DNA from: Candidatus Ryanbacteria bacterium CG10_big_fil_rev_8_21_14_0_10_43_42
Lineage (GTDB): Bacteria > Patescibacteriota > Minisyncoccia > Ryanbacterales > 2-02-FULL-48-12
Reading direction: 5' to 3'
Assembly: GCA_002793915.1 (NCBI GenBank)
Contig: PFEF01000006.1
Coordinates: forward strand, 24,697-88,696
DNA: 64,000 nt
The notes under the pieces are model-generated. The model ran no database searches, had not been told where the DNA came from, and saw nothing but the letters and a program-made list of their open reading frames with translations. Below, in pieces: positions 9,033 through 49,687 of this stretch. The translations under genes were made by a program, and so were the position numbers. Position 1 is the stretch's first letter; every line of letters begins with the position of its first letter.

Positions 9033-9461
9033 TCAATCTCTGTTTTTGTGTCCGCCATGTTTTTTTGCCGGACATTTGCATCCATGCGGCTTTATAAAAT
9101 CATCAAAGTATTCTTCGCCATAATCATAGGTGATTTCCTCACCGGGTTTAATGGTGCGTGTGGCGAAAATAAGGATACGCCCGCCACGTTCATCTGTTTC
9201 GCAATTAGGCTTGCAGGCATGGTTAATATACCGAGCCAAGTGTTTATGGTCTTTTGCGTCTAGTGTCCATTTGGTGTTTATGGTAAAAAGATATTTTCCG
9301 CCTCGTCTATCTGCTTCCGCGTCGGAAATTTTTTCTCCCGTATATTCAATAACAAAATCCCCTTTCTTAAATTCCCGTTTTGTAAACAAAGCGAGTCCTG
9401 CACCGGGTTTTGCACGCTTTACACAAAACCAATCCTTATGGGTTGTATATTTTTGTGACAT
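9033..9461 (-). CDS. SET-domain protein lysine methyltransferase
   Basis: ARYINHACKPNC (NHxCxPN SET motif), GEEITYDYG (post-catalytic ELxxDY-like), C-terminal CKCPAKKH post-SET Cys cluster. 142 aa. Confidence 0.85.
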   Translation of the reverse strand: MSQKYTTHKDWFCVKRAKPGAGLALFTKREFKKGDFVIEYTGEKISDAEADRRGGKYLFTINTKWTLDAKDHKHLARYINHACKPNCETDERGGRILIFATRTIKPGEEITYDYGEEYFDDFIKPHGCKCPAKKHGGHKNRD

Positions 9462-42014: not shown

Positions 42015-42674
42015 ATGGATTTTATTATGAAAGATATATTTGCCGTGTGGAAACCGAAGGGTATGACATCGCATGATGTTGTGAATGCCGTTCGGCGTGC
42101 TACGGGAATAAAAAAGGTAGGACATGCGGGTACGCTTGATCCTCTTGCGGAAGGAGTTTTAGTGGTGGGGGTTGGGCGGGATGCCACGAAACAGTTGGGA
42201 GATATTGTCGCAAAAGAAAAAGAATATGTAGCAGAAGTACTTCTTGGCACCACAAGTAGTACGGACGACGAAGAGGGTGAAAAAACAAAAAGGAATGTAA
42301 GCATTCAGCCATCAAAAAAAGATGTGGAAAAGGTGATAAAATCATTTATCGGGCGCAGTATGCAGGCGCCTCCTCGTTATAGCGCTCTTAAGGTAGGGGG
42401 TGTGCCGGCATACGCATACGCACGCGCCGGTAAAGCAGTGGAATTAAAAGAGCGGCAAATTATGGTAAAGGAAATGGAGCTTGTTTCATATGTCTATCCG
42501 TTTGTCTGCTTTCGTACCGTGACAGGACCGGGAGTATATGTTCGTGCGCTTGCAAGAGATATGGGAGAGCGGCTCCATACGGGCGGATATCTTACGGCAC
42601 TTACGCGAACGCGCGTAGGCGCATTTACCGGGAAGGATGCATGTGTGCTTTCAGAATTAAAAAAAGCCCTGTAA
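42015..42674 (+). CDS. truB: tRNA pseudouridine(55) synthase TruB (no PUA domain)
   Basis: GHAGTLDPLAEGVLVVGVG catalytic motif. 219 aa. 1 nt after tgt. Confidence 0.9.
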   Translation: MDFIMKDIFAVWKPKGMTSHDVVNAVRRATGIKKVGHAGTLDPLAEGVLVVGVGRDATKQLGDIVAKEKEYVAEVLLGTTSSTDDEEGEKTKRNVSIQPSKKDVEKVIKSFIGRSMQAPPRYSALKVGGVPAYAYARAGKAVELKERQIMVKEMELVSYVYPFVCFRTVTGPGVYVRALARDMGERLHTGGYLTALTRTRVGAFTGKDACVLSELKKAL

Positions 42675-42908: not shown

Positions 42909-43631
42909 ATGCAAGAATCTCACAATCCGTATGTCATTCCTCTCTCCATTATTGTCGCCGGTGTTCTCATTGCAGGAGCCATTATGTATGCCGGAGACGG
43001 GGGTGGTTTTGTGGCACAAACGGATACAACAAACCCAAAAGACGGTACGGAAAGTGGTAATGAACAAGCTGTTACGGGTGATGTAAAATCCGTTACGGGA
43101 GAAGATCATATTTTAGGCAATCCGGACGCACCGATAAAATTGGTGGAATATTCGGATTTGGAGTGTCCGTTTTGTTCACGATTCCACGCCACCATGAAGC
43201 AGGTAATGGATGAATATGGAAAAGATGGGCAAGTGGCATGGGTATATCGCCATTTTCCGCTATCACAAATTCACCCATCGGCAAATGAGGCGGCACAGGC
43301 AAGTGAGTGTGCGAATGAGCTGGGAGGAAATGATGGATTTTGGGCGTATATCGATGAAGTATTTTTGCGCCAGGATCAGGGACTTTCCACGTCAATGCTT
43401 CTAGCTGTTGCCGAGGATATAGGACTTGATAGACCGGCATTTGAATCATGCCTTAGCTCAGGAACATATGCAGAAAGTGTTCAGCGGTCATTTGAAGATG
43501 CGCGTACGGCTGGCGGTACGGGTACACCATATACGGTAGTGGTTGTTGATGGCGATACATTTACGCCAATCAATGGTGCTCTTCCGTTTGCGCAGGTATC
43601 ATCCGTCATAGAAAGTGCATTGGCAAGATAA
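42909..43631 (+). CDS. DsbA-like thiol:disulfide oxidoreductase, membrane-anchored
   Basis: N-terminal TM, LECPFCSRFH (CPFC active site), thioredoxin fold. Confidence 0.8.
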   Translation: MQESHNPYVIPLSIIVAGVLIAGAIMYAGDGGGFVAQTDTTNPKDGTESGNEQAVTGDVKSVTGEDHILGNPDAPIKLVEYSDLECPFCSRFHATMKQVMDEYGKDGQVAWVYRHFPLSQIHPSANEAAQASECANELGGNDGFWAYIDEVFLRQDQGLSTSMLLAVAEDIGLDRPAFESCLSSGTYAESVQRSFEDARTAGGTGTPYTVVVVDGDTFTPINGALPFAQVSSVIESALAR

Positions 43632-43655
43632 TCTTTATTTTTTCCGGTAATGCAT

Positions 43656-43688
43656 AAAAAAGCCGAAGCATGGCATGCTTCGGCTTTT
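43656..43688. terminator. bidirectional terminator between the dsbA-like gene (+) and the NusG-paralog gene (-)
   Basis: aaaaaagccgaagcatggcatgcttcggctttt. Confidence 0.8.
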
Positions 43689-43690
43689 AG

Positions 43691-44185
43691 CTATATCTCT
43701 GCGAGATTATGCTCGGGTATATTCACGCGAATTTTTTTTCCGATTAAATTTATCAAAATGGCCATGTAATCGTAAGGAGAGTTCTTTTTATTTTTTACTC
43801 TTTCAATTACCTCTCCTATAATATTCTTAAAAAGACCATCGACAACAAGAACATTTCCCGACCACTGCTTCTCAAGATCTATTATTCCGCCAGTTTCTCG
43901 CTCCTTGAGTTCGGTAATGATAAGTTTATCAATGGGCAGAATCTCACCGGTCGTTCCCACTATATATTTTACGCCTGGTACATTGTTTGTGGTGTGTATG
44001 TGTTCTTTATTAATACACACAAATAGATATTGCGGAAAGAGAGGGGTTTTTATACGTCCTTTTCTTTGTATCTTTTGATATCGCATGGGAAGGTAGATAT
44101 CATCTTTAGGAAATATGCTTTCCAAATAACTCTTTACGGAACGTTCTTTTGCCGCATTGGTCATTACCACATACCATTCCTTCAT
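43691..44185 (-). CDS. NusG-family paralog (NGN + KOW; RfaH/UpxY/LoaP-like specialised antiterminator)
   Basis: MKEWYVVMTNAAKERSVKSYLES (NGN start), PQYLFVCI, C-terminal KOW (GNVLVVDGLFKNIIGEVIERV). 164 aa. Monocistronic on the minus strand, ending at a bidirectional terminator. Confidence 0.8.
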   Translation of the reverse strand: MKEWYVVMTNAAKERSVKSYLESIFPKDDIYLPMRYQKIQRKGRIKTPLFPQYLFVCINKEHIHTTNNVPGVKYIVGTTGEILPIDKLIITELKERETGGIIDLEKQWSGNVLVVDGLFKNIIGEVIERVKNKKNSPYDYMAILINLIGKKIRVNIPEHNLAEI

Positions 44186-44307
44186 ATAGCACCTCTCAAA
44201 TATATTCTGTAAACATTAATGACATAAAAATATATAAAAGTCAATAGTTTTATTGTTGCTGAAATAGTATGCCATAATTTATTTAAAAGAACTATCCATA
44301 AGCTATG

Positions 44308-44336
44308 TTGACGTAAATAAGTTCATTTGCTAGAAT
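44308..44336 (+). promoter_or_regulatory. sigma70-like promoter TTGACG-17-TAGAAT driving the DAHPS leader
   Basis: Consensus-quality hexamers, ~270 nt upstream of the Trp-rich uORF. Confidence 0.55.
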
Positions 44337-44503
44337 GGTTGGTAATGAATAGATTCGTGAACCAGTCTAAAAACTTTTTCTCCTTTTGGGGATGGTTTTT
44401 TGCCTTTATGAGGCGGACTGGTTTTAGGAATGTGATGTAATATAAACTCACAATACATGCTAAATACCAGTCCTGTCCAAGCAGGAATTTTTTGTGCTTT
44501 AAC

Positions 44504-44551
44504 GGCTCATAATCTTTTTATAAATTTTTTAATATAAAAAGGTTATGAGCC
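44504..44551. repeat. 19-bp near-perfect AT-rich inverted repeat (hairpin/palindrome) in the DAHPS leader
   Basis: ggctcataatctttttata - aattttttaa - tataaaaaggttatgagcc (18/19 complementary). Confidence 0.6.
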
Positions 44552-44607
44552 CTATAGAGCATATTTATAGGAAAGTTCTTTAAAAAAGGAATAGGGAGGA
44601 ACGAGTT

Positions 44608-44721
44608 ATGTGGTTCGAAGATCAGGAAGAATGGTGGCGCAACGCATATACGCCATTGTATAGTCCGAAAAAAAACAACGAAGACCATGAAGATCAAGAT
44701 GGTAAAAATCTTGCATGGTAA
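44608..44721 (+). CDS. upstream ORF / candidate leader peptide (37 aa, Trp-rich)
   Basis: SD gggaggaacgagttATG. MWFEDQEEWWRNAYTPLYSPKKNNEDHEDQDGKNLAW (4 Trp including tandem WW). Ends 27 nt before the DAHP synthase start. Confidence 0.35.
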   Translation: MWFEDQEEWWRNAYTPLYSPKKNNEDHEDQDGKNLAW

Positions 44722-44748
44722 GAGAAGTACATCAAGAGGAGGAATAGT

Positions 44749-45882
44749 ATGCTTGTTAAGATGTATGGACATGCATCGTCGTCGGAAATTACGGCAATCG
44801 AGGAAAAGCTGCACGGTTTGGGGTATACAACCGGCAAAATGGTCGGTGAGGAAATCACCCTCATTGGTGTCTACGGCGATATCACCCGGCTGCCAACTGG
44901 CGAGATTCAAGAGATGGCTGGTGTAGACCGCCTGATCCCAATCTCGCGCGCCTATAAACGGGTCGCCCAAAAAGGGGTGCCCGGAGCACTTATCCATCAA
45001 ACGGTTCGCATTGGCAGAGTTGAAGTGGGCGGCGATGCATTGAGTATAATCGCCGGTCCTTGTTCGGTTGAGAGTGAGGCCCAGATTATGGAAGCGGCAT
45101 TTTTTGTTAAAGAGTCGGGAGCAAAAGCGCTTCGGGGTGGAGTGGTAAAATATCGCTCAAGTCCATACAGTGGTTGGGAAGGCATTGGTTCAAGCTCTGA
45201 AGAAGCCCTGCGGAATGGCTTACGGCTGATTGTGAAAGCCGGGCGTGCCTTTGATCTGCCAACCGTTGTTGAGGTGCTGGATGCGGCTGATGTGTCGATC
45301 TATGAAGATATGGGGGTGGACTGTCTGCAAGTTGGCGAACCGAACGCCAAAAACCAGTCTCTGCTCAATCGTCTACGTGACACCCAGCTCCCGGTCATCC
45401 ACAAACGCGGTAATTCCTTAGATATCGAAGCGTATCTCTTGTGGGTTGAACGCGTTATGGCAGCGGGCAAAGAAAATGTCATCCTCTGTGAGCGGGGGAT
45501 TGTGAGTTCAAATAAATATACCCGCAATACGCTGGATATGGGTGGTATTGCCGCATTTCATTATCAGCTGTCGTGTTTGCCTGTGGCTATTGATGCCTCG
45601 CATGGCAGTGGTATTCGTGATCTGGTCCATCCGCTAACCTTGGCTGGAATTATGGCCGGTGCCTCAGTTGTTCTCGTTGAATCCCACCCCAATCCGCTGA
45701 TTGCCAAGTCGGATGGATTTCAAGGCTTATTTCCCGAACAGCTCTCCCGCTTAGTCGCTGCCTGCCAGCAGGTGTGGGAACTTCGTAAGCGCATCGAGCC
45801 CTTGTACGTCCCGAGTGCACTACTTGAACAGCAGTATGAAGAGCGGATTGGCCATGATAAAAAACGGTTCTTCGATGTTTAA
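44749..45882 (+). CDS. 3-deoxy-7-phosphoheptulonate (DAHP) synthase, type I-beta with N-terminal ferredoxin-like regulatory domain
   Basis: SIIAGPCSVES, KYRSSPYS, ILCERGI, DASHGSG match I-beta DAHPS/KDO8PS. N-terminal ~65 aa regulatory domain as in Thermotoga DAHPS. Visibly higher G+C and CTG/GCC/GGC/ATC codon preference than neighbours. Confidence 0.9.
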   Translation: MLVKMYGHASSSEITAIEEKLHGLGYTTGKMVGEEITLIGVYGDITRLPTGEIQEMAGVDRLIPISRAYKRVAQKGVPGALIHQTVRIGRVEVGGDALSIIAGPCSVESEAQIMEAAFFVKESGAKALRGGVVKYRSSPYSGWEGIGSSSEEALRNGLRLIVKAGRAFDLPTVVEVLDAADVSIYEDMGVDCLQVGEPNAKNQSLLNRLRDTQLPVIHKRGNSLDIEAYLLWVERVMAAGKENVILCERGIVSSNKYTRNTLDMGGIAAFHYQLSCLPVAIDASHGSGIRDLVHPLTLAGIMAGASVVLVESHPNPLIAKSDGFQGLFPEQLSRLVAACQQVWELRKRIEPLYVPSALLEQQYEERIGHDKKRFFDV

Positions 45883-45893
45883 AAAGGAGGAAT

Positions 45894-46109
45894 ATGGCCG
45901 TGCACTATGATAAAAATGGATTTCCGTGTAATGGCAGATTGAAAAAGATATGCTCTGCATTAAGTTATTGTTGTACATGCAAAATGAGCATTATAAACGC
46001 GGTGCTCTTTGTACTTTCTCCGGAGCGCATATTGTTCCTTAAAATGCGCAGAGAAATTTGTAATTCTTTCCACGAAAACGGCTCTTTGGATTTAGGAGCC
46101 ATTTGTTAA
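45894..46109 (+). CDS. small Cys-rich ORF (71 aa) co-transcribed with DAHP synthase
   Basis: SD aaaaaggaggaatATG right after the DAHPS stop. 7 Cys (CNGRLKKICSALSYCCTCK...). Terminator at 46115-46147. AT-rich, unlike the DAHPS gene. Confidence 0.4.
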   Translation: MAVHYDKNGFPCNGRLKKICSALSYCCTCKMSIINAVLFVLSPERILFLKMRREICNSFHENGSLDLGAIC

Positions 46110-46114
46110 GAAGG

Positions 46115-46147
46115 TAAGGGGGTTATTAAATAATAACCCCTTTTTTC
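46115..46147 (+). terminator. rho-independent terminator ending the DAHPS transcription unit
   Basis: aagggggttattaaataataaccccttttttc: 9-bp stem + U-run. Confidence 0.75.
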
Positions 46148-46472
46148 TTAAAAACTTACACTATACCGTTATTAACAGCCTTTATTGACAAAAGATCGTT
46201 TTTTGTTAGCATGAAGGAATGTTAAAGGGAGATAATATTTCCGATACGAAAAAGACCGCGCTTCTCTTTGGAGATGTAATTATGTGCCTTACGAAAAGGT
46301 AGCAGAGTTTGTTTTAAATGATTTATAGTAACAAGCTCTGCTTCACGGCAGAGTATTTTTGTATAATGTATGGATTGTTTGTGGTTTGCGATGTGTCTGC
46401 TTGATAGTGGGCATATGAAGATCATAAGCCGGCTCGTTGACAATTTAAACTCTTATAGGGAGGAGGTTTAGT

Positions 46473-46664
46473 ATGCCCAAGAATAGAAAAGATGAAGATT
46501 CTCATCTGGTGCACGGAGGTGACCCGTTTGTCATTACTCCGGTAATGGGAGATACATATGATAGAGCGGAGATTGAAGAAAATCCTCATCTTGAGGATAA
46601 CTTACGCCGCTTAGAGAAAGAGCGTAAAAAGTTACGAAGGGAGGCGAGTAGTCATGGAAAATAA
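46473..46664 (+). CDS. hypothetical protein A (63 aa, acidic N-terminus + basic coiled-coil tail)
   Basis: Strong SD tatagggaggaggtttagtATG. ...LVHGGDPFVITPVMGDTYDRAEIEENPHLEDNLRRLEKERKKLRREA. Overlaps ORF B by 11 nt. Confidence 0.5.
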   Translation: MPKNRKDEDSHLVHGGDPFVITPVMGDTYDRAEIEENPHLEDNLRRLEKERKKLRREASSHGK

Positions 46665-47106
46665 TCTTTCTGATCTTTTACAGCGTGTGGTGGAAGAGTG
46701 TTCTCAAGATATGGCAGACGCAAACCAACGGCATAAAGAGCGTCAGGATAAGAGAGTATGTTTTGTTTATACAAATTGGAGTGTTGATAGAGCAAATGGG
46801 ATAGAGGTGGTGATAGCGAGTGTGGGCATGATTATCAACGGAGTGCGATATGAGGGGATGGCAACTTCTTTTGATGCTGTTCGGCCGGTAAGAGATGTCT
46901 TAATTGAGTCCATTTTATTGGCTGCTTTTAAATCAGATATTATAGCGGGAGAGAATATTCCTTCATTTAAAAGCTGTTTTCAGTCGGGAGTTGTGACACT
47001 TTTTGTGGAGGATGATTCATTTTCTGTTGAAGTTTCCGATGAGCGCGATGACCTTGCTTCTATGGAGGTTGCACGACGATATATTGCTTCACGATTGCCA
47101 TCGTGA
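46654..47106 (+). CDS. hypothetical protein B (150 aa)
   Basis: SD gaagggaggcgagtagtcATG; translationally coupled to A. No family recognised. Confidence 0.55.
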   Translation: MENNLSDLLQRVVEECSQDMADANQRHKERQDKRVCFVYTNWSVDRANGIEVVIASVGMIINGVRYEGMATSFDAVRPVRDVLIESILLAAFKSDIIAGENIPSFKSCFQSGVVTLFVEDDSFSVEVSDERDDLASMEVARRYIASRLPS

Positions 47107-47158
47107 AGATTTATGGGGATGCTTACACGCACCCCCATTTTCTAAGGAGGAGTGCGAT

Positions 47159-47524
47159 ATGCTCGATATGGTATTTAAACTACGTCAAGAAAATGAGCGC
47201 GTATATATGGAAATTACGCTTAAGATGAACGACATTTCGGCAACGGAAATATACGAAGGTGATGATTCTTCGTGTCGGCTTGAGGAGAGAGCGGTGACGC
47301 TTATGTTGCAGGCGGCTCAAACGATCGGGATTATGCCACAAACTCAGTTTTCTGTTTCTGTAACGGGAGGGACGGAAGTTCGGAACGGTGTTTTGGTAAC
47401 GATACATGCTGAAAGGAAAATGACGGGATTCACGGATTGTGTTTATAGCACACCGTTCACAGCGGCGCAGGCAACAAAAGATATTCTTGAGCAATTACAG
47501 AATAACGAAGTTAAAGCGGCGTAG
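47159..47524 (+). CDS. hypothetical protein C (121 aa), possible distant paralog of B
   Basis: SD taaggaggagtgcgatATG. ORF-track start 47003 lacks an SD and overlaps B. Shares a ...TGG.EV.NG.L... beta-hairpin-like motif with B. 12-bp-stem terminator follows. Confidence 0.55.
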   Translation: MLDMVFKLRQENERVYMEITLKMNDISATEIYEGDDSSCRLEERAVTLMLQAAQTIGIMPQTQFSVSVTGGTEVRNGVLVTIHAERKMTGFTDCVYSTPFTAAQATKDILEQLQNNEVKAA

Positions 47525-47529
47525 ATGTA

Positions 47530-47569
47530 AACCCCAGAATTTCTATTGGAAATTTTGGGGTTCTTTTTT
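47530..47569 (+). terminator. rho-independent terminator after small ORFs A-B-C
   Basis: aaccccagaatttctattggaaattttggggttctttttt: 12-bp stem (one G-U) + U-run. Confidence 0.8.
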
Positions 47570-47638
47570 AAGAAGATTGATTTTTAGTTTACATGGCATT
47601 ATAGTGGAACGAAGATTACCTGATAAGGAGGAGAATGT

Positions 47639-47965
47639 ATGCAAGGAGTATTTGTTATGATTACATACATTCCGAAAAGGGCACTTGATGAAGCATTGTC
47701 GCGAGAGGGTGAAGACCCTCCTACGCAAGAAGAGGCTCTTTCGTTTTTACGGAAGGTTATGTCGTTTAGGGAAATCCCTTCGATTCTGAATAACCCTCCC
47801 TTAATCGGACGTCTTCTGGACACATTTTATGGGAGACATGCCCGTGCCGGTAATGCTTTTGAAAGGATGTCAATTGTCGAACGAGTGAGAGGTGAAAAAT
47901 TGGAGATTACAGGAAAGAGGGTTAGGGAAAAAAATAAGAAAAAAGAAATACAAAGACGCGTATAA
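47639..47965 (+). CDS. hypothetical protein D (108 aa), basic C-terminus
   Basis: SD taaggaggagaatgtATG; own terminator at 47964-47988. C-terminal RVRGEKLEITGKRVREKNKKKEIQRRV. Confidence 0.5.
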   Translation: MQGVFVMITYIPKRALDEALSREGEDPPTQEEALSFLRKVMSFREIPSILNNPPLIGRLLDTFYGRHARAGNAFERMSIVERVRGEKLEITGKRVREKNKKKEIQRRV

Positions 47966-47988
47966 GAGCATTACGCTCTTTTTTTTGT
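47964..47988 (+). terminator. rho-independent terminator after ORF D
   Basis: agagcattacgctct + tttttttt. Confidence 0.65.
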
Positions 47989-48040
47989 CTTCATTATACA
48001 TCCGCTTTCCACTTTTTACGCACTGATTTATACTGGGGAA

Positions 48041-49687
48041 ATGACCAGAAGTGAACTTCTTCAAAAATTAAAAGAAAAACGAAAGGAGATTGCCGAGCGT
48101 GAAGGCAAGGAGCTTTTTATGGTATTTCAAAATAAAGCTCTGGAAGAAACAGTAAAAGCAATGCCGCAAACACGGGAAGATTTAAAATTGGTAAAAGGAT
48201 GGGGAAAGGTAAAAATATCACGGTATGGAGACGAAATTCTTTCTATTTTCAAGCAGGGAAACGGGAAACATGAGGATACTTATGCAACAGGCGGATTATT
48301 TAATAATCCAATACCTGCCGCCGAATCTCCCTCGGGCGGAGAAGGCAAGCAGTCTCATGATAACGCCGTATTATCGGTTTCGGAATTTATCGAAGTTGTT
48401 AATATTACGCTTTCACGATTAGGTTTGGTGCGTGTGCAGGGAGAAATAAGCGAGATGCAGATGCGGGGAGCGGCGGTATATTTTACGTTAAAAGATACAT
48501 CGGGTGAGGATGCGATAGTAAAATGTTTACTTTGGAAATGGCAATTTGAACAGCAGTATGATTATTTGGAGGATGGTTTGGAAATTATTATAGAGGGAGT
48601 GCCGGATGTATTTGTAAAATATGGAACATTTAGCGTAAAGGTAAGTCGCGTAGAGCCGGTAGGGGAAGGTGCTCTTAGAAAAGCATTCGAAGCGCTTAAG
48701 AAAAAATTTGAAATGGCCGGATATTTTGATGAAGCGCGCAAGCGTCCGCTTCCGCGCATTATACAACGTATAGGAGTTGTTACTTCCGCTTCCGGAGAAG
48801 CAATTAATGATTTTAGGCGCAATATCGGAGACTATGGTTTGGAAATATGTATGGTAGATGTGCGCGTGGAAGGAGTATACGCCGAGGATTCCATCGTGAA
48901 AGGAATACAATGGTTAAATACTCATCATGCCGATTTGGACGTACTTGTTCTTATACGCGGAGGCGGTGGTCTTGAAAATTTGAAGGCATTTAATTCAGAG
49001 CGAGTTGCTGAAGCCGTTCTTGGTTCGCGTTTGCCGGTAATAACGGGTATTGGGCATGAGCGCGATGATACCATTGCGGGTTTTATAGCGGACATCAATT
49101 GCTCTACGCCAACAGCGGTTGCGGTGTATATTCGGCACATACGGGAAGATCTCATAGGGGAGGTAAATGAAAAAGTGGAACGGCTGATTCGTTTATTTGA
49201 TGTTATATACGAAACAGCACTGCGTTCATTGCATGAGCGGAAGACGGGACTTATTATTTCGTATACCCACATTCTTTCGCGGTATCGGCATGACATCGCA
49301 TCACATACGCGTGCCCTACAGACGGGGCTGTTTCAGATATTTAGCGGATTTCGTCTTTTAACGGAACAGTTTCGTTCATCATTTCACCGTTATGAATCTA
49401 TTTTACGGGAATATTATCGAACGGTAGAAATAAACGCCGTAAAAGGGGTTCGTATTCTTGAACGGAGTATGCAGGAATACGAAAAACGTATTTCTGTTAC
49501 CGAAACCGCGCTTGCTTCTCTGGATCCGGCGGCGCCTTTAAAGCGCGGATATAGTATTACATACGGATCTGACGGCCGCGTGCTCAAGAATGCAAAGAAT
49601 GTTACCATAGGGGAGAGAATCAGCGTACATTTGTACGAAGGGAATATTGGTGCGCGGATAGAAGAAAATATTCAGCCGGAAAAATAA
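48041..49687 (+). CDS. xseA: exodeoxyribonuclease VII large subunit with N-terminal HRDC-like domain
   Basis: Residues ~1-75 (LLQKLKEKRKEIAEREGKELFMVFQNKALEETVKAMPQTREDLKLVKGWGKVKISRYGDEILSIF) fit the HRDC pattern. OB fold and XseA catalytic core follow (VRVQGEIS..., IGVVTSASGEA, ITGIGHERD). Confidence 0.85.
   Translation: MTRSELLQKLKEKRKEIAEREGKELFMVFQNKALEETVKAMPQTREDLKLVKGWGKVKISRYGDEILSIFKQGNGKHEDTYATGGLFNNPIPAAESPSGGEGKQSHDNAVLSVSEFIEVVNITLSRLGLVRVQGEISEMQMRGAAVYFTLKDTSGEDAIVKCLLWKWQFEQQYDYLEDGLEIIIEGVPDVFVKYGTFSVKVSRVEPVGEGALRKAFEALKKKFEMAGYFDEARKRPLPRIIQRIGVVTSASGEAINDFRRNIGDYGLEICMVDVRVEGVYAEDSIVKGIQWLNTHHADLDVLVLIRGGGGLENLKAFNSERVAEAVLGSRLPVITGIGHERDDTIAGFIADINCSTPTAVAVYIRHIREDLIGEVNEKVERLIRLFDVIYETALRSLHERKTGLIISYTHILSRYRHDIASHTRALQTGLFQIFSGFRLLTEQFRSSFHRYESILREYYRTVEINAVKGVRILERSMQEYEKRISVTETALASLDPAAPLKRGYSITYGSDGRVLKNAKNVTIGERISVHLYEGNIGARIEENIQPEK

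Follow-up and report, generated by a model that had tools for sequence, protein, structure and literature searches.

The 3-deoxy-7-phosphoheptulonate (DAHP) synthase (DAHPS) of Thermotoga maritima is the closest described counterpart of the gene studied here. DAHPS opens the pathway to the aromatic amino acids. The T. maritima enzyme is of type I-beta and has an N-terminal ferredoxin-like (FXD) domain that acts allosterically (PDB 1RZM/3PG9; PF18152 plus PF00793; NF006421). In such enzymes the Lys and the first Arg region bind phosphoenolpyruvate (PEP), while the Arg-Thr of the KPRT motif binds the phosphate of erythrose-4-phosphate (E4P); a further PEP-binding residue, the Arg of G-(A/S/E)-R, is called “completely conserved” across types Iα, Iβ and II (PMC6362186). 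We examined a homologue encoded at positions 44749–45882 of a 64,000-nucleotide stretch of DNA, the window, from Candidatus Ryanbacteria bacterium CG10_big_fil_rev_8_21_14_0_10_43_42 (assembly GCA_002793915.1, contig PFEF01000006.1, positions 24,697 to 88,696 of the forward strand). The gene is probably, and we hold this with good confidence, an acquired and still functional type I-beta DAHPS homologue with an FXD domain, which passed from a Candidatus Binatia-type donor into Ryanbacteria.

Ryanbacteria belong to the Parcubacteria of the candidate phyla radiation (CPR, or Patescibacteria), bacteria that are believed to obtain amino acids from partners and for which very few hosts are known. 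A survey of inter-phylum horizontal gene transfer (HGT) into this group reports few acquired amino-acid-biosynthesis genes and mentions neither DAHPS nor Binatia (PMC12455944, mSystems 2025). Our own literature search returned no work that connects DAHPS or the shikimate pathway with CPR or Ryanbacteria. As in that survey, a streamlined CPR genome here gains a metabolic gene from a non-CPR lineage of groundwater or soil; the present case differs in that members of one enzyme clade entered twice, and both times nothing but the open reading frame (ORF) was kept.

An outlier gene in a Ryanbacteria genome

The gene and its parts are as follows.

44749–45882, + strand: DAHPS-like gene, 377 residues (Pfam, match to PDB 1RZM, outlier in G+C at third codon positions)
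44749–44946, + strand: FXD regulatory domain, residues 1–66 (Pfam PF18152)
45016–45780, + strand: TIM-barrel catalytic domain, residues 90–344 (Pfam PF00793)
residues ~345–377, + strand: clade-specific C-terminal extension

How foreign is this gene to its surroundings? We called 48 long ORFs across the window and compared it with the other 47. Its G+C content (GC) of 0.516 is the highest in the window (other ORFs 0.434 ± 0.022, z = 3.7). So is its GC at third codon positions (GC3), at 0.511 against 0.382 ± 0.032 for the others (z = 4.0); the runner-up, at 0.483, is a doubtful ORF of 173 residues at 47003–47524 (121 from the start at 47159). Under host codon usage this protein would be encoded with a GC3 of 0.388 ± 0.023. 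The observed value is 0.512 (z = 5.3), and in the same amino-acid-conditioned test the host genes range from z = -2.7 to +2.9. The gene also has the poorest fit of all 48 to the window's synonymous codon usage, over-using CTG, GCC, GGC, ATC, GTC and ACC where the host prefers CTT, GCG/GCA, GGA, ATT/ATA and GTA. An earlier note on this DNA, made from the letters alone, had called the gene a compositional outlier with CTG/GCC/GGC/ATC-type codons, and our figures bear this out (GC3 z = 4.0–5.3, codon enrichment as claimed). The comparison of 0.511 with the GC3 of rpoB (0.403) and rpoC (0.386), which that note had proposed, likewise favours HGT. In a 200-nt sliding profile the GC-rich block coincides with the extent of the ORF. 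The leader (27–41% GC) and the downstream DNA (34–39%) agree with the note's description of an AT-rich, host-like leader and small following ORF.

Such a sharp step in GC at both ends of an ORF, in metagenome-assembled sequence, might be expected of a chimeric assembly, or of a binning error that had put a Binatia gene into a Ryanbacteria contig. But the same gene, with the same flanks and identical junctions, occurs on seven contigs, which come from different samples and were built by different assemblers (ENA k141, JGI, NCBI MAG). RpoB, RpoC, TypA, Tgt, XseA, the NusG-like neighbour and the DAHPS-like protein itself are exact matches to proteins of a Candidatus Ryanbacteria metagenome-assembled genome (MAG; PJE643xx), which sit on contigs of up to 524 kb. 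The closest donor-type gene is only 87.7% identical in nucleotides, so no co-assembled donor template was at hand, and chimeric joins would not coincide with both ends of the ORF and leave a host ribosome-binding site (RBS) in position. We give an artefact next to no probability.

Donor lineage and two captures

From which lineage did the gene come? A search of 5.8 billion proteins returned ~120 matches at 79–94% identity to the window protein; those with names belong to Binatia, Methylomirabilota, Thermodesulfobacteriota, “Deltaproteobacteria” and one other Ryanbacteria. Among 185,579 species genomes, relatives occur at 56 loci, which we denote by L and a number. Those at 77–92% identity are overwhelmingly Candidatus Binatia and include more than 15 complete chromosomes of 4–6 Mb; Poribacteria follow at ~63%. 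At ~40 Binatia-type loci the GC of the gene differs by no more than about 0.03 from that of the 20 kb on either side. The gene-minus-flank difference is +0.091 in the window, +0.144 at the second Ryanbacteria locus (L062) and +0.153 in a low-GC MAG (L048).

The nearest relative, P0002/L072, is 94% identical to the window gene in amino acids and 87.7% in nucleotides. L068, L005 and L070 stand at ~92% and 85%, and all four share a large-genome Binatia context and a leader rich in Phe codons, described below. The GC3 of these nearest donors is 0.526–0.582, so that the window gene at 0.511 is slightly lower. In neighbour-joining trees with 500 bootstraps the window gene groups with L005, L061 and L065 at 100%, inside a Binatia subclade. 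The second Ryanbacteria copy, L062, groups with L028 at 99.4%, in a different Binatia subclade. The window gene and L062 never group together (0/500).

The gene is therefore an acquisition from a Binatia-type donor, with both the donor lineage and the direction of transfer established. It is atypical in the recipient and typical in the donor, its phylogeny is nested and its boundaries are discrete, the marks by which HGT is recognized. The earlier note had suspected a horizontal acquisition and had asked whether the phylogeny follows the host; it does not, the gene nesting within the unrelated Binatia and not within CPR. The genomic context of L062 also differs from that of the window: its copy follows GH1, GH42 and an uncharacterized 241-residue ORF that it overlaps by 4 nt. 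With different positions in the tree and different contexts, the two Ryanbacteria copies represent two independent captures of the same enzyme subfamily, from different Binatia subclades.

Copies in two Ryanbacteria genomes would also be expected if the gene were vertically inherited in that lineage, its composition skewed by expression or by amino-acid content, or if it had passed from CPR to Binatia. On this account, however, the two copies ought to group together, instead of falling into different Binatia subclades and contexts. The GC3 excess remains after amino-acid conditioning, rpoB and rpoC are not skewed, and the gene has native composition, synteny and native regulation in Binatia. 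We consider a native origin extremely unlikely.

Relatives of the neighbouring Tgt, which might have pointed to the ancestral insertion site, lie at 80 loci, all at ≤64% identity, with neither conserved synteny nor DAHPS. A phage vector was considered and rejected: IMG/VR holds no relative, the window contains no tRNA genes, no convincing direct repeats flank the gene, and the orphan neighbours gave no match in PADLOC and only a weak one in PHROG.

Two side observations were made among the relatives. Five loci (L008, L018, L050, L054 and L055) with Binatia-type DAHPS-like genes come from MAGs labelled “uncultured Enterobacteriaceae bacterium” (binchicken co-assemblies). The complete copies among them (L008, L018 and L050) have flanks of 54–56% GC and the Phe leader, and the Enterobacteriaceae labels of all five look wrong. 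In “bacterium ARS1290” (flank GC 0.43, strong positive AT skew) a GC-rich island of ~4.7 kb (L048:7200-11900) lies between dnaE and rnhB/rnc/smc. It holds a Poribacteria-affiliated member of the DAHPS-like clade and a fragment with the LeuA dimerization domain, and seems to be a third such acquisition by a genome of low GC.

Boundaries and selection after capture

How much foreign DNA did the Ryanbacteria retain? By sensitive blastn of window positions 43600–46700 against donor-type loci with 1.5-kb flanks, only 44749–45846 aligns. In a DNA alignment of the 3' end, similarity reaches the stop codon and does not extend beyond it. The donors have the gene of an S66 LD-carboxypeptidase beginning 0–3 nt after the DAHPS-like stop; the corresponding place in the window is taken by a host-type RBS and an orphan ORF of 71 residues. 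From these limits we conclude that the retained foreign DNA is the ORF alone, from start to stop codon.

The pairwise ratio of non-synonymous to synonymous substitution rates (dN/dS, ω) of the window gene against its closest Binatia relatives is 0.06; the constraint on the second Ryanbacteria copy is as strong (L062 against L028, 0.047). We polarized the changes with L072 as sister and L005, L068 and L070 as outgroup. The window branch carries 41 synonymous and 18 non-synonymous changes (ω ≈ 0.14) and the L072 branch 23 and 7 (ω ≈ 0.10), a difference that is not significant (Fisher p = 0.62). The reading frame contains no stop codon or frameshift. Seven residues are unique to the window copy, of which one (T10S, in the FXD domain) falls at an otherwise invariant column. 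Purifying selection thus persisted after capture.

These numbers bear on the possibility that the gene is a functionless passenger, recently arrived, of no benefit without a downstream pathway and not yet decayed. No other pathway gene lies in the window or its 76-kb contig, there is little amelioration (GC3 0.511 against 0.526–0.582 in the nearest donors) and the window branch has about twice as many changes as its sister. A passenger, however, would not be expected to accumulate 59 substitutions at ω ~ 0.14 with its frame intact. The trimming of the flanks to the ORF, with a host-type RBS and leader, argues for residence time and selection in a streamlined genome, and the second, independent capture is intact as well (dN/dS 0.047 against its nearest donor). 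A mere passenger is very unlikely.

Identity of the enzyme

The protein matches two Pfam families: DAHP_snth_FXD (PF18152) over residues 1–66 (E = 1e-11; 44.9 bits against a cut-off of 27), and DAHP_synth_1 (PF00793) over residues 90–344 (E = 3.6e-46; 157.7 bits against a gathering threshold of 25.5). The latter family also covers KDO8P synthase (KDO8PS), so that this match by itself leaves the specificity unfixed. Models of KDO8PS (KdsA) score far more weakly than those of DAHPS (75 bits against cut-offs of 242 and 314). Among solved structures the closest is that of T. maritima DAHPS, 1RZM (E = 3e-51 over residues 32–339).

With the T. maritima enzyme the window protein shares the two-domain architecture, the metal ligands and the substrate residues. 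The four ligands, Cys of AGPCSVES, His of DASH, Glu of VESHP and Asp of SDG, fall on the T. maritima ligand positions without variation in the clade, and the substrate residues of LRGG…K.R (KxR), KRG and CERG are kept. The motifs AGPCSVES, KYRSSPYS, ILCERGI and DASHGSG, on which the earlier note had relied, are all present in the 377-residue translation. Its verdict of an “unambiguous Thermotoga-type DAHP synthase” holds for the homology and is overstated for the type, given the KYRS and GEPN motifs and the scores below NCBIfam cut-offs set out below. On its sequence the protein is a distinct variant of the type I-beta DAHPS homologues, and we infer DAHPS activity for its clade. An AlphaFold2 model built from a shallow alignment (≥78% identity) was too poor for a fold search (mean pLDDT 55.6, pTM 0.42).

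Regulation and neighbourhood in the donors

In Escherichia coli, pheL encodes a short leader peptide packed with Phe, and the pheL/pheA leader acts by transcription attenuation. At ~35 loci of the Binatia clade, all nearest relatives included, the DAHPS-like gene is likewise preceded directly by a short Phe-rich ORF, of ~20 codons. Its peptide ends in …F(A/S)F(Y/F)FAP-stop (for example MTARVFPVFVFPAFAFFFAP and MADRLSSFPFSFAFYFAP). An invariant hairpin, UGCCCC-CUAG-GGGGCA, carries this stop codon in its loop, and a T-rich tract comes after the hairpin. The elements of the donor loci are:

L005:9836-9925; also at L019, L065, L068, L071 and L072: Phe leader ORF, ~80–165 nt upstream of the DAHPS-like start
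L019:11141-14784 and L026:14781-16976: peptidoglycan-recycling-type string, tightly after the DAHPS-like gene, with a convergent SLT lytic transglycosylase gene

The GC hairpin and T-rich tract are also features of the E. coli attenuators. The donor element differs from these in having its stop codon in the hairpin loop, in a spacer of 4–6 nt before the T-run and in its lineage; no alternative antiterminator helix was identified in it, and neither Ryanbacteria copy has the element. Rfam, Phe_leader included, gave no match to it. By analogy we regard the leader as a candidate pheL-like attenuator in Candidatus Binatia. Because Phe codons precede the gene there, the enzyme appears tied to aromatic amino-acid supply in the donors, and the leader argues, as good if indirect evidence, that the enzyme serves Phe biosynthesis in them. 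The earlier note had raised a non-canonical role for the product; in the donors, at least, the leader points to aromatic amino-acid synthesis.

No aro genes were found in the donor gene neighbourhoods. At ~30 loci of one Binatia subclade the order is DAHPS-like gene, LdcA (S66), β-lactamase-family hydrolase and Mpl-like Mur ligase, facing SLT; in another subclade a Ddl-like ligase adjoins the DAHPS-like gene. We considered the LdcA, β-lactamase-family, Mpl-like and SLT string as a functional link and set it aside as weak: it occurs in a single subclade, the neighbours in the deep branches are unrelated housekeeping genes, and those in Poribacteria are unrelated too.

A DAHP synthase or another aldolase?

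Several observations weigh against our overall explanation. The window protein has KYRSSPYSGWEG where T. maritima DAHPS has KPRTSPYSFQG, and GEPN for GARN, with loss of the Arg. In longer form, KYRSSPYSGWEGIG replaces KPRTSPYSFQGLG, and QVGEPNAKN replaces QIGARNAQN in an alignment free of gaps, Pro standing in place of Arg. These variant motifs are invariant over 51 clade members, down to 55% identity. At the KPR(T/S) site the clade reads K-Y-R-S: Lys and Arg are kept, Thr to Ser is conservative, and Pro to Tyr is clade-wide (Trp in distant members). The GARN position reads GEPN, GEVN, GETN or GAIN, always without the Arg. KYRS is accompanied by added segments that the clade shares and T. maritima DAHPS lacks: a 1-residue insertion, an insertion of ~7 residues after GIG, and the C-terminal extension of ~35 residues. 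All four NCBIfam models of 3-deoxy-7-phosphoheptulonate synthase that we scored (NF006421, NF009933, TIGR01361 and NF009239) are missed at their cut-offs (295.2 against 335, 242.3 against 486, 226.9 against 267.75 and 192.2 against 279). The pathway is a further difficulty. Within the 64 kb of the window and the 76 kb of its contig, out of a genome of at least 524 kb, no shikimate or aromatic gene was called; for the window, this agrees with the earlier note's report that it holds no other shikimate-pathway gene. Patescibacteria as a rule lack amino-acid biosynthesis, and a complete pathway is a priori unlikely (PMC12455944). As to the transfer, the trees were built by neighbour-joining only, and some MAGs of the donor clade are labelled Methylomirabilota, Thermodesulfobacteriota or “Enterobacteriaceae”, so that “Binatia” is the majority label. 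Evidence of amelioration is weak and we do not rely on it: the ratio of GC>AT to AT>GC changes is 37:14 versus 12:13 (p = 0.044) in one polarization, and 34:17 versus 17:10, not significant, in the better-rooted one. In the donor leader, finally, the pairs of the hairpin are invariant, and covariation therefore speaks neither for nor against the helix.

How far does the loss of the Arg extend? In a HMMER search of 1.84 billion representatives the compact clade appears as one cluster at 50% identity together with a few Arg-less representatives at 46–60% (GEPN/GETN/GAIN). Below the clade there is a sharp drop, canonical FXD-DAHPS representatives being ~35–43% identical to the window protein. Of the representatives at ≤45% identity, ~28 yielded no extractable motif; nearly all the others have KPR(T/S) with G[AST]RN or a near variant that keeps the Arg (GMRN, GARS), the exceptions being two with GADN or GGQS. 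A compact DAHPS subfamily that lacks a supposedly universal PEP-binding Arg bears on the mechanism of the enzyme. It also affects automated annotation, in which the clade is called DAHPS by homology and yet fails the curated thresholds.

Might the K(Y/W)RS/GEPN clade then be a neofunctionalized aldolase of PEP, or of another 2-oxo acid, with a different aldose substrate and product, useful on its own, for instance as a sugar acid of the envelope, and for that reason captured singly by genomes without a shikimate pathway? The clade-wide loss of the Arg for the PEP phosphate and alteration of the KPRT/E4P motif would fit this, as would the scores under the NCBIfam cut-offs, the repeated capture of a single gene by reduced genomes, and the cell-wall genes that adjoin it in Binatia (LdcA, β-lactamase-family, Mpl-like and SLT at ~30 loci, Ddl-like elsewhere). 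That neighbourhood, however, is limited to one subclade, the deep branches having unrelated neighbours. The Phe-codon-rich leader of ~35 donor loci is a hallmark of aromatic amino-acid control, and the FXD domain, which is an aromatic-amino-acid sensor in T. maritima, is kept. Nor has any of the four metal ligands, or of the K, R, K and R substrate residues, been lost. As for the missing Arg, KDO8PS also lacks it and yet uses PEP. We judge a changed specificity unlikely. The fuller proposition, that the clade is a distinct PEP aldolase useful by itself, which Ryanbacteria took repeatedly from Binatia because the two are physically associated, is distinctly unlikely; if true, the gene would stand for a novel specificity of the enzyme and would also indicate, from genomes, which hosts a Parcubacteria lineage has.

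An acquired DAHPS homologue thus remains our explanation, and the following course of events seems probable. A Candidatus Ryanbacteria (CPR/Parcubacteria) lineage took the DAHPS-like gene from a Candidatus Binatia-type donor, without retaining the donor's Phe-leader attenuator or its downstream peptidoglycan-recycling genes. The captured ORF now stands behind a host-type, AT-rich, structured leader with its own RBS, beside an orphan NusG paralog. Because the metal-site and most PEP-site residues are kept, and because the donors have the Phe leader, the enzyme would be expected to condense PEP and E4P to DAHP. The E4P could come from the pentose-phosphate genes of the same window (G6PD, 6PGL, 6PGD and PGI), and the product may enter those steps of the shikimate route that the host or a partner supplies. 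Otherwise the window holds the housekeeping genes usual in CPR: the Suf system, thymidylate, DHFR and dUTPase genes, a ROK kinase, type IV pilin-like genes and rpoBC.

Single biosynthetic genes of non-CPR origin, then, do become fixed in streamlined, epibiont-type genomes. The transfers make Binatia a candidate for the ecological partner, or the host, of Ryanbacteria. If the genome truly has no downstream pathway, the role of DAHP, or of another product, in the cell becomes a sharp experimental question.

The leader and flanking genes in Ryanbacteria

What now controls the captured gene? A spacer of 563 nt, AT-rich, separates it from the divergent NusG-like neighbour. The features of the locus outside the gene are:

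43691–44185, - strand: NusG paralog (RfaH/UpxY/LoaP-like), 164 residues, GC 0.366 (Pfam NusG NGN; PHROG transcription antiterminator)
44308–44336, + strand: promoter-like site TTGACG-17-TAGAAT with TG extension (consensus scan, pattern match only)
44340–44600, + strand: structured AT-rich 5' leader, a chain of stem-loops (RNA fold z = -7.4 against shuffles)
44379–44392, 44399–44417 and 44471–44486, + strand: terminator-like hairpins in the leader
44504–44522 and 44533–44551, + strand: arms of a perfect 19-bp hairpin in the leader (fold z = -5.7)
44608–44721, + strand: 37-codon leader ORF, MWFEDQEEWWRNAYTPLYSPKKNNEDHEDQDGKNLAW, with a strong RBS, GGGAGG, and its stop 27 nt before the DAHPS ATG
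45894–46109, + strand: Cys-rich orphan ORF of 71 residues with its own RBS and host composition (ORF list)
46116–46143, + strand: strong terminator-like hairpin (terminator scan)

The site at 44308–44336 is a candidate promoter for a transcript of leader and DAHPS-like gene, and the hairpin at 46116–46143 the probable end of the transcription unit. Terminator-like hairpins are dense here: positions 43500–48200 contain 15, against 3.8 ± 1.9 in shuffled sequence. The leader at 44340–44600 is not repeated elsewhere in the window and, searched together with its region in Rfam, gave only sub-threshold, miRNA-like noise from the hairpin. By blastn neither this stretch nor the 37-codon ORF shows similarity to the donors' Phe leader.

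The 37-codon ORF may be a translated leader, and it is called as a gene in an independent assembly. It has four Trp codons, including a tandem WW, a density reached by 0.8% of 361 comparable small ORFs of the window (uncorrected). A trpL-like sensor is, by analogy, a hypothesis only; no terminator was found between this ORF and the DAHPS-like gene.

The NusG paralog returned only itself among the 5.8 billion proteins, and a metagenome scan was also empty. Its NCBIfam scores (RfaH 56 bits, UpxY 50, LoaP 37, NusG 36.5) are all below cut-off. Like the specialized paralogs RfaH, UpxY and LoaP, which target the leaders of accessory or horizontally acquired operons, it has NGN plus KOW length; it is divergently placed and lies beside the long, terminator-rich leader of an acquired gene. 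It differs from them in that the target here would be a single gene and not a long operon, and its link to DAHPS is positional only; neither an ops-like element nor a LoaP hairpin was identified at the locus. From its position, the paralog may regulate the adjacent DAHPS transcription unit. One possible arrangement would be antitermination through the terminator-rich leader that depends on the NusG paralog, with or without sensing by the small ORF rich in aromatic codons.

The 71-residue ORF behind the gene has no match in Pfam, NCBIfam, PHROG or PADLOC, and the DNA downstream has no homology to donor DNA. It is the first of five small ORFs (71, 63, 150, 121 and 108 residues) at 45894–47965 without a Pfam, NCBIfam or PADLOC match; PHROGs give only a marginal match, of the 121-residue ORF to phrog_12981 (E = 0.009).

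Three further genes of the window deserve mention. XseA, the large subunit of exonuclease VII (48041–49687, + strand), has an N-terminal HRDC domain (PF00570) besides its OB and Exonuc_VII_L domains, an unusual fusion. A SET-domain protein (PF00856, 142 residues) is encoded at 9033–9461 (- strand) in this CPR genome. There are two separate genes for pseudouridine synthases with a TruB_N domain, one at ~830–1717 and one at 42015–42674, both on the + strand.

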